From positions 8,538-72,537 of the forward strand of contig CAZSAK010000004.1 of the NCBI GenBank assembly GCA_964605155.1: a stretch of 64,000 bases of DNA. The letters run 5' to 3'. Origin of the DNA: an uncultured Chromatiaceae bacterium. GTDB lineage: Bacteria > Pseudomonadota > Gammaproteobacteria > SZUA-140. Position numbers and translations under genes: made by a program. Shown piece after piece: positions 42,115-47,086 of the stretch. The first letter of the stretch is position 1; the number at the start of each line of letters is the position of its first letter. The notes below the pieces were generated by a model that was not told the origin of the DNA, did no database searches, and saw only the letters and a program-made list of their open reading frames with translations.

Positions 42115-42430
42115 GGATAGCAATATATCGAACCATACTGCATGAATATTTACAGAATAAGCCGTAGCCTGGGAAGAGAGGCCGTTATTGTAGATCCGCA
42201 TTAGCATTTATCCGATCGATAATATAAACGTTATCCGTATATGACATTTTGCTACCCGTTGCGAGGTAGTGTAAAGTAACTTGAGAAACCACCGTGCAAA
42301 GCCGCATGACTTTGCGGGTATGCAGATATTTTCAAGATACGGCTTTATTGCACCAACTACCCTGATAAACAAGGTTACAGTGATGTTTGCTGACAAATAT
42401 ACCATTACCCTGGCAGTGCCGAAGTTCCTG

Positions 42431-42835
42431 ATGAGCAATATAATCGGAGCAATTCTGGTTATTGCCGCGCTTATGGGGTGCAGCGAGGAATCAACAGGCA
42501 TGGCACCGGATGAGCTGGGGCGTAAATTCTATGATGCAATCATCAATGAAGACTTTCAGACTGCTGCCTCATTTTACGGCGGCAATGAGCCCGTCGATGC
42601 CCGTGTGCAGGAACTGAAAGAACAGCGAGATTCATTAGGTGACCTGAAAAGTTATAAACTTGAGGACACCATCGTAAATACGATATTCAGTGGTAAACGT
42701 TATATTTTCACCTATCGCTTGCAATATGCACATGCAGACGTAAGGGAAATGCTGATCATGTTCAAGAGTGTTCGGGCTGGACCTCTCCATATAGAGGTAC
42801 GAAATGACAAGATAAAACATCAGGATGGCGAATAA
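42431..42835 (+). CDS. Lipoprotein (NTF2-like/DUF4878-like)
   Basis: Start at the internal Met gives MSNIIGAILVIAALMGCSEE (lipobox LMGC), then ELGRKFYDAIINEDFQTAASFY. The ORF opens at 42281. Confidence 0.5.
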   Translation: MSNIIGAILVIAALMGCSEESTGMAPDELGRKFYDAIINEDFQTAASFYGGNEPVDARVQELKEQRDSLGDLKSYKLEDTIVNTIFSGKRYIFTYRLQYAHADVREMLIMFKSVRAGPLHIEVRNDKIKHQDGE

Positions 42836-42856: not shown

Positions 42857-43627
42857 TTACTTGATACTCATCACCAGCATCTTCCCCCCGGTTTTTTCCG
42901 CCAGCTTGTTGTATTCATATTCAGTATCCGGATCGGAGCGACCCATGGGCAGGGTAAACACGGGGCTGGGTATGCTCTGATAATCGATGGTGTCATCAGA
43001 GGGTTCGTCACCGATGAGGATATATGCGCCCGGTGCCGCAGCATTCTGACTTGCAACCCGGAAGGTATGCCCGATATTCTCCACATTGCCCACGAACGGG
43101 GCGCCTACCATCAGCAGATCGAACATCTCCGCCATTGTGCCGGTATAGGTCTTGGTCGATTTATCGGAAAACCATGTTATTGCTGTTAATTGTTTGTCCG
43201 CCCGGATGACAATCATACGCAATACAGGGATCAGGAATGCAGACACCCCGTGCATGGATCCGGTTGCATCGACGATCATATGAATATCCTTACCAGGAAT
43301 ATCCTTCAGTCCTTTGACAAACAGATCAAAATCCTTGCGGCCGATATTGGCAGTGTCAAGGATGGTATTCAATTGTCCTTCGGAGTCGGTGACAATCATC
43401 CTCTGAAAATCCGCCAGTACCCTGTCTTTATCGGATTCGGCGATATTCAGCTTTTCCTTTAGTGCTTCAAGCTGTGCCTTGAGTCTTGGCAGTTCATTCT
43501 GTTCAGACACCCGGCTGGTGATCAGTATAGTAACCAGCAGGAAAATGAATGTGGCCAGCATCAGCAGAGCGACGTCGGAGAAACTCTCATGAATGCTATT
43601 GGTAGATGTTTTACGTGTACGAGCCAT
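42857..43627 (-). CDS. MotB/TolR-like stator-plug membrane protein with periplasmic coiled coil and VWA-like (MIDAS DxTxS) domain; no OmpA domain
   Basis: 256 aa. N-terminal TM SFSDVALLMLATFIFLLV has the invariant stator Asp in MotB-like spacing. Next is the coiled coil LPRLKAQLEALKEKL. Then an alpha/beta domain with HMIVDATGSMHG, TYTGT and ILIGDEPSDD motifs. It lies 15 bp downstream of the MotA-like gene on the same strand. Confidence 0.6.
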   Translation of the reverse strand: MARTRKTSTNSIHESFSDVALLMLATFIFLLVTILITSRVSEQNELPRLKAQLEALKEKLNIAESDKDRVLADFQRMIVTDSEGQLNTILDTANIGRKDFDLFVKGLKDIPGKDIHMIVDATGSMHGVSAFLIPVLRMIVIRADKQLTAITWFSDKSTKTYTGTMAEMFDLLMVGAPFVGNVENIGHTFRVASQNAAAPGAYILIGDEPSDDTIDYQSIPSPVFTLPMGRSDPDTEYEYNKLAEKTGGKMLVMSIK

Positions 43628-43642
43628 TATCAGGAAACTCCA

Positions 43643-44671
43643 TCAGGGGGTTTTTTTGCTTCGCATGGCACGTTTCAATCTAGGCCACCATGACCGATTG
43701 ACTTTATTCATCATTTTTATCTCTTCCTTGAGAAGTTTTGCATAGTATTGCTGGAGAATGACTGAATCCCTTAACGTGGGCCTGTCTTCGTCACTTCCCT
43801 CTGCAGCAAGGTCGTTTAATCGCCGGGCCTCCTCCCTGAAGCCGGACATAATATCCCTGGAATCGGTCATGGCCTGTTTCAGGTAATTAACATTGGAGCC
43901 CAACGTCGCAATTTCTGCATTCAGCACCCTCATGTCCCGTTCCAGGGTGGGTTTGCAGTCGGAAGAACAATAGACCATACATATTTTTTTCAGGATATCG
44001 GAAAGATTCTCGACACCATGTTCCGTGATGAGGGCGAAAACGCGTAGCAATACACCACCGAGTACGGCACCCAGCAAGGTGGTGTAAAAGGCAGTTCCCA
44101 TACCGCCCATCGCCCGGCGGAGTCCCTCTACCAGACGTTCCTGATCAACCCCGAGGGCCTCCAGCGAGCTTGTAAGACCGGTAAGGGTAAAGGTGAGTCC
44201 GATGACTGTACCTATCAGACCCAGCGTAATGAGCAGGTTGCCAAGAACCTCGACAAAATTACTGGTGCGGTGGTATGAGGCAAGCTCTACATCAAGCAAC
44301 GCCTCTATATCCGGTTGCACATTCTGTGCAAGTATATCCTTGAGTGAAACAAAGAATTGCTCCACGGCATGAAACGGGTGGGGAATATCTATACCGTTGA
44401 GGCCTTCCTTTTTGGCAACATCACCCAGTTGTGTCGCATGCAGGGCCTCGGTTGTGATCGTGATGGCAAGTCCCACACTGACGATTAAACCCAGTATGAA
44501 AAGTCCTATGATAATCCACGTGATCTTGCTCTTATCCTGCTGTAGCTGAATCCATAGATCGGTATCAAGGTACAGGGTTAGATATACCCCGATCGCTGCT
44601 GCTGCCCAAAACAGCCATAACAACAGGGTACGATAGGGTTTTTCATAAATGGGTTGTCTCTTGGCGGCCAT
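43643..44671 (-). CDS. MotA/TolQ/ExbB proton-channel family protein with about 135-aa Cys-rich coiled-coil cytoplasmic tail
   Basis: 342 aa. TM1-2, a cytoplasmic loop, then TM3-4 carrying the family signature (LGNLLITLGLIGTVIGLTF...GMGTAFYTTLLGAVLGGVLLRVFALI). The C-terminal tail contains CMVYCSSDC plus heptad-like repeats. Confidence 0.75.
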   Translation of the reverse strand: MAAKRQPIYEKPYRTLLLWLFWAAAAIGVYLTLYLDTDLWIQLQQDKSKITWIIIGLFILGLIVSVGLAITITTEALHATQLGDVAKKEGLNGIDIPHPFHAVEQFFVSLKDILAQNVQPDIEALLDVELASYHRTSNFVEVLGNLLITLGLIGTVIGLTFTLTGLTSSLEALGVDQERLVEGLRRAMGGMGTAFYTTLLGAVLGGVLLRVFALITEHGVENLSDILKKICMVYCSSDCKPTLERDMRVLNAEIATLGSNVNYLKQAMTDSRDIMSGFREEARRLNDLAAEGSDEDRPTLRDSVILQQYYAKLLKEEIKMMNKVNRSWWPRLKRAMRSKKTP

Positions 44672-44900
44672 CTGTGGTGCTACCGACTGTTATGGAATAC
44701 TGCGCACTTACGTAACTATCAACGAGATATGTCAATCAGGGGGTTTTGAACTTTGAACTGTAATCGATCTCATGATAATGGATCAGCGCGATTTTTGCAT
44801 GTTTGCAAGCAGCGGCAAATTGAATATAAAACGTGATGGTTGATTGATAACCTGCCATTCAAGAATCGCGATTCCCAACAGGATGGAGGTGGCAGGCGGC

Positions 44901-44952
44901 ACGCAAACGACAACACGGTACGTATTCGATTCAGCCGTGTTGTCGTTTGCGT
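44901..44952. repeat. 18-bp perfect inverted repeat (ACGCAAACGACAACACGG / CCGTGTTGTCGTTTGCGT) with 16-nt loop
   Basis: Read directly from the sequence. No flanking U-tract on either strand. It lies between the small-peptide gene and the MotA-like promoter region. Confidence 0.8.
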
Positions 44953-45071
44953 AGCGTGGATTTCAGACTTGCGTCGGCCTCGTCAACGGTGGCTCGCAGC
45001 AAGCGCGTTATCAACCGGTCGTCAACAAAAATGTGATATCGACCGGATATTGCTGTGGATCTGCAGGGCTA

Positions 45072-45179
45072 TTAAGCCATGCTGTAGCCGAGAAAACCCA
45101 GGAACAATATGATGATTGAGGCCGCAATAATGATTACCGTGTCATGCTTGGTGATATCTACCCAATTATTATTAGACAT
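45072..45179 (-). CDS. Small hydrophobic peptide (35 aa, single TM)
   Basis: Minus-strand ATG preceded by GGGGGATAAAG. Product MSNNNWVDITKHDTVIIIAASIIILFLGFLGYSMA. Below the 60-aa ORF-track cutoff. Confidence 0.4.
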   Translation of the reverse strand: MSNNNWVDITKHDTVIIIAASIIILFLGFLGYSMA

Positions 45180-45223
45180 CTTTATCCCCCCGTCGTTGTC
45201 TGTCATTGACCTAGTTGCTTTAT

Positions 45224-45251
45224 ATTATACTAACTCGCTGATCCGGGACAA
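45224..45251 (-). promoter_or_regulatory. Putative sigma-70 promoter for the small peptide gene (-35 TTGTCC, 16-bp spacer, -10 TATAAT)
   Basis: Minus strand reads TTGTCCcggatcagcgagttagTATAAT, about 45 nt upstream of the ATG. Confidence 0.35.
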
Positions 45252-45412
45252 TTCTTTTCGTTCACATATGTCATGTATGTATATCTTTGGTGTATGGCCC
45301 GATCAGCATGGTAATGACCGACCATATGGGTAGGACATATGGCGCCCTCGCTTGATTTATGTAATTTATTGAAATATCGCTGAAACAAGGACAAGATGGC
45401 CGACTGGTAATC

Positions 45413-47086
45413 TTATCGTACCACGGCCAGACCGATCCCGCGTGGGTCGCTGGCCGCCTTGACCTCGTTGCGGGCGCGATCCCATAGCACCGCCTGCATA
45501 TTGCCGTAATTGCGGCCACTTTGTTTGAGGTTATGACCGAGGGCCCGCAATTCGGCCACTTCATCCAGGCTAAAGGTTCCAGGTTCATAGCTGACGAAGT
45601 CTGGCATGTATTGATGATGGAATCGTTTCACGCTGACCCAGGAAGCCGGTCCGTTGCCCTTGGCATAATCAAGCACTCCCAGTAAAACCATGGTGATGAT
45701 CCTGCTCCCACCGGGTGTCCCGAGGATAGCGACCCGTTCACCGTCATCAAGGAAGGTTGGGGTCATGCTTGATAGCGGGCGTTTGCCCGGAGCAATGGCG
45801 TTGGCCTGGGCTCCGATCAAACCGTACACATTCGGTACGCCGGGCTTGGCGGAAAAATCATCCATCTCGTCGTTGAGCAGGACTCCAGTCCCGTATGGCA
45901 TAAAACCGGATCCGAAGGGAAAGTTGATGGTCAGTGTTGCAGCTACACGATTGCCCTGTTTATCGAGTACAGAGAAATGTGTCGTATGGTTTGCCTCCTC
46001 GTCTGCAGGCAAACCGGGCAGCGTGTTGCTGGGCGTTGCCCTGTCTATCCTGATCGAGGCGGCCAGGCCGGCGGCGTAATAGGGATTGGTCAGGCGATCA
46101 ACCGGAATATCGACATAATCCGGATCACCGAGATATTCTGCGCGGTCGCGATAGGCACGGCGCATGGCCTCGATGATGAGATGGGTTTGTGAAACAGGTT
46201 TCAGTTGATGGAGCTGATAACCATCCAGGATATTCAGCATGGTCAGCAGGGCTACGCCACCTGACGAAGGCGGTGCAGCGGAGGTGACCTGGATATTCTT
46301 GTATTTACCCCTTATCGGTTGACGTTCAAGGACATGATATTCGGCCAGATCCTGCAGTGACCAGATACCGCCGGCATCGCGGGTGGCCGCCACCAGTTGT
46401 TTGGCGATATCGCCTCGATAAAAGGCATTCTTGCCTTCTCGCGTGATCGCTTCCAATGTTCGTGCAAGATCCGGTTGCTTGATGACGAAACCGGGCGGCG
46501 GTACGTCGTTGTCATGCAGGAATACTTGGGCCGCAGCCGGTGATTTACGCAGGACTTCAAGGCGGAACGACGCCAGCCTGCGGTAGCGTTCATCGACGGT
46601 AAAACCTTCACGAGCCAGGCGGATGGCCGGTGCAAGGGATTTTGATAGCGGCAGGCGGCCGTACTTCTCTGCCAGGTGATCAATCGCAGCGACCGTGCCG
46701 GGTATCCCCGCCGCCAATGGTCCATCGATCGAGAGCCTTGGGATGACCTTGCCTTCCTGATCGAGATACATATTGTTGCGGGCGGCAAGCGGCGCCCTTT
46801 CACGACCGTCAAGCATGATATCGAGATGGTCGTCTTCGCGGTGCAACAGCCAGAAGCCGCCGCCGCCCAGTCCCGAACTCGCCGGTTCGGCAACGGCCAG
46901 TGCTGCTGTGATCGCAACTGCGGCATCAAATGCGTTGCCGCCGGATTCCAGGACTTCAAGCCCGGCTTGTGTTGCCAGTGGATGGGCACTGGCTACTGCC
47001 ACTGCAGGCGGTTCAGCGGCATCCAGCGGGTTCAGCCAGAGCAGCGCGATAACACAGATTATCGATAACAGACTGAATCTACTCAA
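45413..47086 (-). CDS. ggt: Gamma-glutamyltranspeptidase
   Basis: Signal peptide; the autoproteolytic-site region; C-terminal TPGGSRIITMVL motif; length 557 aa. Confidence 0.9.
   Translation of the reverse strand: MSRFSLLSIICVIALLWLNPLDAAEPPAVAVASAHPLATQAGLEVLESGGNAFDAAVAITAALAVAEPASSGLGGGGFWLLHREDDHLDIMLDGRERAPLAARNNMYLDQEGKVIPRLSIDGPLAAGIPGTVAAIDHLAEKYGRLPLSKSLAPAIRLAREGFTVDERYRRLASFRLEVLRKSPAAAQVFLHDNDVPPPGFVIKQPDLARTLEAITREGKNAFYRGDIAKQLVAATRDAGGIWSLQDLAEYHVLERQPIRGKYKNIQVTSAAPPSSGGVALLTMLNILDGYQLHQLKPVSQTHLIIEAMRRAYRDRAEYLGDPDYVDIPVDRLTNPYYAAGLAASIRIDRATPSNTLPGLPADEEANHTTHFSVLDKQGNRVAATLTINFPFGSGFMPYGTGVLLNDEMDDFSAKPGVPNVYGLIGAQANAIAPGKRPLSSMTPTFLDDGERVAILGTPGGSRIITMVLLGVLDYAKGNGPASWVSVKRFHHQYMPDFVSYEPGTFSLDEVAELRALGHNLKQSGRNYGNMQAVLWDRARNEVKAASDPRGIGLAVVR

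Follow-up and report, generated by a model that had tools for sequence, protein, structure and literature searches.

What occupies the long gap upstream of an ExbB/TolQ-like operon in an uncultured Chromatiaceae bacterium? The window analyzed here, a stretch of 64,000 nucleotides (nt) from GenBank assembly GCA_964605155.1 (contig CAZSAK010000004.1, positions 8,538 to 72,537 of the forward strand), carries on its minus strand a gene for an ExbB/TolQ-like membrane protein, called MotA-like below, followed by a gene for a 256-amino acid (aa) partner with an ExbD-like helix and a VWA fold. A first-pass annotation, made from the letters alone, had read the 740-bp gap in front of this pair as a leader or regulatory cassette containing a small open reading frame (ORF) with its own promoter, a long inverted repeat, and further promoter-like elements. 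Measured from the stop codon of the gamma-glutamyltranspeptidase (GGT) gene that forms its upstream border (45413–47086, minus strand) to the MotA-like ATG, the gap comes to 741 bp (44672–45412, minus strand). Every sequence feature listed by that annotation was found where it had been placed. At a probability of roughly 0.6, we favor another interpretation of these features, namely two end-to-end transcription units of ordinary layout, a stand-alone gene for an accessory protein and then the operon, with no leader cassette.

In the arrangement that we propose, the first unit would consist of a gene for a 35-residue single-pass microprotein with its own promoter (P1), a strong ribosome-binding site, and a 3′-end stem-loop. 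The second unit would begin at a separate promoter (P2) that lies some 100 nt ahead of the ExbB/TolQ-like gene. The microprotein would act in trans, as a protein. Most likely it would be an accessory subunit, or a modulator, that is confined to certain lineages and serves the membrane complex of the ExbB/TolQ-like and ExbD-like/VWA proteins.

A small ORF in the spacer evolves as a protein-coding gene

Relatives of the locus came from a metagenome scan, which gave 80 further loci (designated by L numbers), and from look-ups based on the peptide, which gave more. The window itself matched metagenome assemblies only, five near-identical contigs among them, and homologs of the MotA-like protein are plentiful in uncultured Gammaproteobacteria. 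The sibling strains L001–L005 encode an identical MotA-like protein and show seven or eight differences in the 741-bp spacer (at 45376, 45329, 45278, 45210, 44906, 44840, 44802, and 44755), none of which falls within the 35-codon ORF or within the hexamers of P1 or P2. At L006, L008, and L010, whose MotA-like proteins are 84%, 79%, and 76% identical to that of the window, the same gap holds a same-strand ORF of 44 to 50 codons.

The ORF of the window (45072–45179, minus strand) comprises 35 codons plus a stop codon, and its product, MSNNNWVDITKHDTVIIIAASIIILFLGFLGYSMA, consists of the N-terminal stretch MSNNNWVDITKHD and then one membrane helix. Five nucleotides before the ATG at 45179 lies a Shine–Dalgarno sequence that had been reported as GGGGGA and is read here as GGGGGGA (45185–45191, minus strand). 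The ribosome-binding site and the ORF are both present as first described; the site, in the form GGGG[GA][GA]A, is common to all eight relatives and is also kept in gene copies that run divergently from the operon. The differences among seven orthologs fall on codon positions 1, 2, and 3 in the proportion 194:88:331. Synonymous and nonsynonymous differences number 224:222 in the sense frame, which is the best of the six frames, versus 166:282 in the best antisense frame. Judged by these substitution patterns, the small ORF is a real, conserved protein-coding gene, and the microprotein sequence is under purifying selection.

A second in-frame ATG lies upstream, at 45206, and could give a 44-aa form with the nine-codon N-terminal extension MTDNDGGIK (45180–45206, minus strand), which occurs in the closest clade only. 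In relatives this first ATG is preceded by GGAGGA, a site that is lost in the window, where GCAACT stands instead. At L121 a stop codon and a 1-nt shift of frame interrupt the extension, whereas the GGGGGAG site and the second ATG are retained, and the GGGG-type site is the sole usable ribosome-binding site. The start methionine of most family members corresponds to the second ATG of the window. Because GGAGGA has been lost in the window and the extension is interrupted in L121, the 35-aa start is the better call. The nine-codon extension is probably not used in the window strain, for which the 35-aa product appears to be the best call.

Gene callers treated this ORF in three ways in the assemblies examined: they skipped it, called the 44-aa frame, or called a spurious ORF on the opposite strand. 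Two assemblies carry the 44-aa sense call and two others a 74-aa antisense call (L001, 9339–9563; L003, 1534–1758). We considered the antisense ORF (45109–45333, plus strand) as the true gene and rejected it; it is open in relatives, but it has the worse ratio of synonymous to nonsynonymous differences and overlaps P1. It is probably a mis-call.

The microprotein belongs to a family of about 30 clusters of single-pass proteins. A profile search of 5.8 billion proteins returned 33 clusters of 36 to 76 residues, none of them named and none with a Pfam domain, and an exhaustive search of 1.84 billion representatives returned 31 members (50% identity), nearly all of 34 to 58 residues. Homologs were detected down to about 35% identity. 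Searches of Pfam, NCBIfam, and PADLOC with the peptide gave nothing meaningful. Family members share the motif M-S-x-x-N-W-[IV]-D-[IV]-[ST]-K-x-D followed by a single hydrophobic helix, and the protein ends 0 to 10 residues past the helix, with no periplasmic domain. The last residue of the motif, Asp13, sits at the N-terminal edge of the helix; it is invariant in the 31-member alignment, and 49 of 50 parsed sequences have the Asp directly before the helix. His12, by comparison, is found in the closest clade only.

One long protein in the representative library (P0278, 1975 aa) also matched the profile, through 12 repeated stretches that cover profile positions 2–16 only. This is probably an unrelated repeat protein.

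The microprotein gene is linked to the operon in a subset of lineages

A check suggested by the first-pass annotation was whether homologs of the peptide accompany MotA-like/VWA pairs in other genomes, and they do. When the peptide is taken as the starting point, the MotA-like gene and the gene for the 256-aa partner lie 266 to 465 nt downstream of the peptide gene in all seven places examined, and the gene on the other side varies (GGT, ferredoxin, or hydrolase genes). Wherever enough flanking sequence was recovered, copies of the peptide gene lie at MotA-like loci, one per locus, and the linkage is kept down to about 53 to 60% identity of the MotA-like protein. At two loci (L040 and L055) the peptide gene stands upstream of the operon but on the opposite strand, transcribed divergently with its own ribosome-binding site and, in L055, with its own terminator.

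The motor-side count took in the 61 loci for which 600 nt or more of upstream sequence was available. The peptide is present at 12 of these, 10 of the 14 loci at 57% or higher identity of the MotA-like protein and 2 of the 47 below. On the evidence of this synteny, the microprotein gene is a lineage-restricted gene linked to the operon as a protein-coding unit, neither a cis element nor a universal subunit.

The same counts bear on whether the gene has anything to do with the motor. It could be a real gene with no functional tie to its neighbor, for example one for a subunit of another membrane complex or for a stress-induced small protein, that happens to be conserved in place. Its absence from 49 of the 61 MotA-like loci agrees with such an explanation, as do its own promoter and terminator, and a search for fusions of the peptide to the MotA-like or partner protein found none. 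Nevertheless, the MotA-like pair adjoins the peptide gene on every peptide-side contig though the other neighbor varies, and the linkage outlasts inversion of the peptide gene and persists to the MotA-like identities given above. We consider an unconnected neighbor unlikely.

At several loci without the peptide (L044, L047, L052, L058, and L060; L048, L050, and L056), the MotA-like gene is preceded, across a short spacer, by a NUDIX-like or a ribosomal RNA (rRNA)-methyltransferase-like gene; these neighbors were named by eye from their translations. The long spacer is therefore specific to lineages that bear the peptide.

The inverted repeat lies where relatives carry terminator-type stem-loops

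The inverted repeat of the spacer (44901–44952, minus strand) forms a stem-loop with an 18-bp perfect stem, whose arms are 44952–44935 and 44918–44901, and a 16-nt loop. It is separated by 119 nt from the stop codon of the microprotein gene, where the first-pass annotation had given about 120 nt, and it is followed by GCCGCCTGCCACC with no T-run; its stem, loop, position, and missing U-tract all read as first described. The free energy of the fold is −33.7 kcal/mol, and among short-range inverted repeats in the 64-kb window this one is the longest.

A stem-loop follows the peptide stop codon in every same-strand relative. The orthologous stem is followed by a T6–T7 run in L006, L033, and L121, and GC stems with T6–T8 tails are present in L037, L041, L043, and L035. 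The stem-loops of the distant clade, whose loops measure 4 to 7 nt, are textbook terminators, as in L037 with GGCCAGATGATCATATCTGGCC followed by T8. This comparison is based on direct folding, because a consensus terminator scan passed over the clear hairpin and T-run of L037 and L041; an automatic tail count is unreliable where outer pairs lengthened the stem.

When the orthologous stems of six sequences are aligned, both sides have changed in 7 of the 19 pairs. Paired cells make up 89.9% of the total versus 23 to 55% when the partner is slid, and 500 shuffles never gave a covariation score as high as the one observed, although the alignment holds few sequences and the structure was derived from those same sequences. 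G-U wobbles occur on the sense strand only. Because the wobbles fall on the sense strand and the arms change in concert, the pairing appears to act in the RNA transcript of the peptide gene.

These properties resemble those of intrinsic terminators, which likewise have a stable stem-loop 3′ of the stop codon on the coding strand; most orthologs add a T-rich tail, and the stems show compensatory changes. The window copy differs in its 18-bp stem, its 16-nt loop (compared with about 3–8 nt), and its missing U-tract. The hairpin is best read as the 3′-end or terminator hairpin of the microprotein transcript, a role suggested by position and covariation. In the window strain the U-tract has been lost and the terminator is probably leaky. 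There the hairpin may serve mainly as a 3′-end stabilizer or a leaky terminator, its efficiency in termination being doubtful, and some read-through into the operon would be likely.

The first-pass annotation had seen in this element a large structured RNA or a DNA-binding site, and its position, where relatives carry the terminator-type stem-loops of the small gene, speaks against both. An Rfam search of 44300–45700 with E values up to 10 returned chance matches only, one microRNA and one small nucleolar RNA. We also weighed the possibility that the repeat is unrelated to the transcript of the small gene and is instead a palindrome of the repetitive extragenic palindromic (REP) or miniature inverted-repeat transposable element type, or the operator of a dimeric regulator. 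The perfect, palindrome-like pair of 18-bp arms would suit such an element, and the sense and antisense folds of the window sequence are about equally stable. However, no second copy of the 18-mer exists in the 64-kb window (0.03 expected), and a scan of 185,579 representative genomes, the source genome not among them, found 19 single-arm matches in unrelated taxa where about 17 are expected by chance. The element is moreover orthologous and fixed in position among relatives, and its concerted arm changes and sense-only G-U wobbles point to RNA pairing rather than to a sequence read by a protein. A repeated palindrome or an operator is very improbable on this evidence, which as to copy number covers the 64-kb window and those representative genomes. 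The palindrome considered as a REP candidate is of the GCAAACGACAACACGG type.

About 20 nt 5′ of the hairpin, the motif CAGTATAGAAACCCAA is conserved in the closest relatives (L006, L033, L118, L121, and L122), and the equivalent position in the window (about 44960–44985) has the degenerate form CAAGTCTGAAATCCAC. The motif might be a processing site or an element of a small-RNA-like 3′ untranslated region (UTR).

Each unit has a candidate promoter

P1 is a putative sigma-70-type promoter (45224–45251, minus strand) in which a −35 element TTGTCC (45251–45246) and a −10 element TATAAT (45229–45224) are separated by a 16-nt spacer, as the first-pass annotation had it. It agrees with the consensus at 10 of 12 positions in a consensus scan. 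The match alone is within chance, since the scan found three promoter-like sites where 1.9 are expected. The block AATTGTCC..GTTAGTATAAGATA that contains P1 is, however, conserved in eight orthologous sequences, and this conservation supports the view that the microprotein gene is independently promoted from the same strand as the operon.

On the opposite strand, a weak promoter-like match at 45200–45228 (plus) is within chance expectation. It would matter if the microprotein were a hydrophobic peptide resembling type I toxins and under the control of an antisense or structured RNA, much as the first-pass annotation had suggested by calling it a possible toxin-like regulator. The peptide is indeed short and hydrophobic with a single helix, and its long 3′ region holds a strong hairpin. 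Set against this are the strong, exposed ribosome-binding sites of all members, where a type I toxin would be expected to have an occluded or weak one, and a conserved acidic N-terminal motif in place of a charged C-terminal tail. Synteny is also fixed across deep divergence, and every copy recovered lies at a MotA-like locus, one per locus. A toxin is accordingly a highly unlikely identity for this peptide.

The most conserved noncoding stretch of the spacer is a 31-nt block, CATGCAAAAATCGCGCTGATCCATTATCATG (44771–44801, minus strand), which is invariant in seven sequences, unique in the window, and located about 100 nt upstream of the operon, at a near-constant distance from its start. It contains a −35-like element ATGCAA (44800–44795), a 17-nt spacer, and a −10 element TATCAT (44777–44772). 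Read as ATGCAA-17-TAT(C/T)AT, it combines a good −10 element and a weak −35 element with a conserved spacer, which suggests a regulated promoter. By its conservation and position, P2 probably serves the ExbB/TolQ-like operon as promoter and operator, with the hexamers tentatively assigned as above. Comparison of P2 by eye with the consensus sequences of Fur and Pho boxes gave poor matches, and neither was adopted.

Two other elements of the first-pass annotation lie in the same part of the spacer. The perfect TTGACA hexamer (44730–44735, minus strand) is present, and no usable −10 element follows it, where the first-pass annotation had noted a poor one; as a promoter it did not hold up, because relatives have GGCATA, TGCACA, CGCATA, and similar sequences at this position, and within the presumed 5′ UTR of the operon it appears to have arisen by chance. 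The TTGCA-N4-TGCAA dyad, TTGCAAACATGCAA (44808–44795, minus strand), is likewise present, and its left half is not conserved in relatives. The consensus fold of the presumed operon 5′ UTR contained zero pairs and thus no conserved structure.

With the order of elements established, the cassette interpretation can be judged in its most specific form, a leader peptide or attenuator. Under it, the extent to which transcription from P1 reads through into the operon would be set in cis by small-ORF translation and hairpin folding. In the window and in most relatives the elements do share one strand and follow one another as such a model expects, and a hairpin without a U-tract makes read-through from P1 plausible. 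However, purifying selection acts on the amino acid sequence, as it does not usually do in leaders, and a hairpin 119 nt beyond the stop codon is too distant for ribosome-coupled attenuation. No conserved alternative pairing was found, the presumed 5′ UTR is unstructured, and the element matches no Rfam family. An invariant promoter-like block, P2, stands between the hairpin and the operon. Finally, the peptide gene is divergent in L040 and L055, as a cis-acting leader could not be. We regard attenuation as quite improbable. The broader claim of a leader or regulatory cassette fails on the same grounds, and also on the terminator position of the hairpin and the lack of conservation of the TTGACA hexamer and the dyad.

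The preferred interpretation, two transcription units and an accessory protein, has its own difficulties. The presence of the peptide at only 12 of 61 loci means that it is no general requirement of the motor family, and the search for a fusion with either motor protein was fruitless. The window hairpin departs from a canonical intrinsic terminator in its 16-nt loop and its missing U-tract; in the sibling strains its stem has one mismatch (T to A at 44906, minus strand); and a consensus terminator scan missed the hairpins of L037 and L041, which the stem and tail rules of the scan may explain. The −35 element of P2 agrees with the consensus at only three of six positions, and the promoter scan did not report P2.

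Three further observations concern the promoter regions. One heptamer appears, in opposite orientations, in the spacers of both P1 and P2, as GGATCAG (about 45238–45244) and CTGATCC (about 44780–44786) on the minus strand, and both of these GATC-containing copies are conserved in most relatives; they could represent a shared operator, a Dam-methylation site, or a coincidence. L037, L041, and L043 have a conserved block of their own, CCCTTGAAAA-N20-TATA(A/G/T)C, directly after the peptide terminator, and the CCCTTGAA part of this distant-clade block resembles a sigma-32-type −35 element. In the same three loci a GGCGCC..GGCGC hairpin abuts the MotA-like start codon.

A possible accessory subunit of an ExbB/TolQ-like motor

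Of the two identities that the first-pass annotation had offered for the peptide, a third component and a toxin-like regulator, the specific linkage to the stator-like operon favors the former. Synteny suggests that the microprotein may be an accessory subunit of the ExbB-like/VWA motor, physically associated with it. Docking could occur through the membrane helix and the acidic N-terminal motif, in the manner of the TonB and TolA helices that lie outside ExbB/TolQ pentamers. A more far-reaching version, which we put forward as a tentative idea and would not expect to hold in full, makes the microprotein the stoichiometric third subunit of an undescribed ExbB/TolQ-type 5:2 motor. The axle of such a motor would carry a periplasmic VWA domain, the microprotein helix would sit outside the pentamer, and its essentially invariant acidic motif (D8 and D13) would serve either to gate the channel or to contact the VWA domain at its metal site. 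If this were true, the microprotein would be a minimal regulatory anchor like TonB or TolA but without the periplasmic arm.

In solved Ton and Tol complexes, a single TonB helix or a pair of TolA helices binds at the pentamer's periphery, and these proteins are defined by Ser-X3-His-X6-Leu-X3-Ser, the SHLS motif (PMC12215075). The locus studied here is similar in that a third single-pass membrane component is encoded beside ExbB/TolQ-type and ExbD/TolR-type proteins. In contrast to TonB and TolA, the microprotein has no periplasmic domain and no sequence similarity to either protein, and the Ser-X3-His-X6-Leu-X3-Ser pattern was not found in the 31-member microprotein alignment. Moreover, the periplasmic output domain (VWA) is here fused to the ExbD-like protein. 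The microprotein would be at most an analog of TonB and TolA, and not a member of their family. The axle proteins ExbD, TolR, and MotB have one membrane helix with a conserved Asp and then a periplasmic domain. The microprotein has an essentially invariant Asp at its helix edge but lacks a periplasmic domain, and the 256-aa partner already supplies an ExbD-like helix.

Several bacterial small membrane proteins, including KdpF, CydX, AcrZ, and MgtS, ride on larger complexes. Like them, the microprotein is a single helix in the range of 30 to 50 residues that is missed by automated annotation and adjoins the complex proposed as its partner. It differs from them in having no sequence relationship to any of the four, in possessing its own promoter and terminator rather than lying inside the operon, and in its distinctive acidic N-terminal motif.

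The channel protein of the window belongs to the same MotA_ExbB superfamily as ZorA of Zorya systems and MotA, and ZorA models match it weakly (E = 1.9e-7). ZorA resembles it also in having an extra C-terminal helical tail. Its scores are nevertheless far under the NCBIfam cutoffs (22 versus 100 bits), and no ZorC or ZorD neighbors are present. The partner differs from ZorB and MotB in carrying a VWA domain and not a peptidoglycan-binding domain, and the fold of the channel protein is nearer to ExbB and TolQ than to ZorA or MotA. Our literature search found no description of a pair of ExbB/MotA-like and VWA proteins or of an associated small peptide.

Small membrane proteins are routinely missed by annotation, and the microprotein family described here has neither a name nor a domain model. 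The ExbB/TolQ-like and ExbD-like/VWA pair is itself uncharacterized, and it is widespread in uncultured Gammaproteobacteria of the sulfur-cycle type. If the microprotein is part of the motor, it would offer a very small handle on how peripheral helices tune 5:2 ion-driven motors. In practical terms, the 741-bp "intergenic" gap should be annotated as one gene and two promoters and not as a regulatory leader.

Genes of the operon and its downstream neighbor

The ExbB/TolQ-like protein (342 aa; 43643–44671, minus strand) matches the MotA_ExbB family of Pfam (PF01618, E = 2.8e-9). Among PDB chains, those of ExbB and TolQ come nearest to its AlphaFold2 (AF2) model, and ZorA, MotA, and PomA rank behind them. 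At its C terminus the protein is extended by an additional helical tail of roughly 100 residues (helices 243–291 and 300–340 in the model; window positions 43643–44000), and in the model it looks like an ExbB-like core with a short, Zorya-like cytoplasmic tail.

The 256-aa partner (42857–43627, minus strand) begins with a membrane helix of the ExbD/TolR-like kind that contains Asp18; a coiled coil comes next, and a VWA fold (DATGSMHG) lies at the C terminus. The ExbD-like helix is FSDVALLMLATFIFLL, and the Pfam ExbD match has E = 0.06.

Just downstream of the pair and convergent with it lies a gene for a predicted lipoprotein of 150 aa with the lipobox LMGC (42383–42835, plus strand), which may belong to the same system as the ExbB-like/VWA pair. 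L111 and L114 have equivalents with 38 to 41% identity in this place, and L006, L009, and L115–L117 have genes of similar size there.

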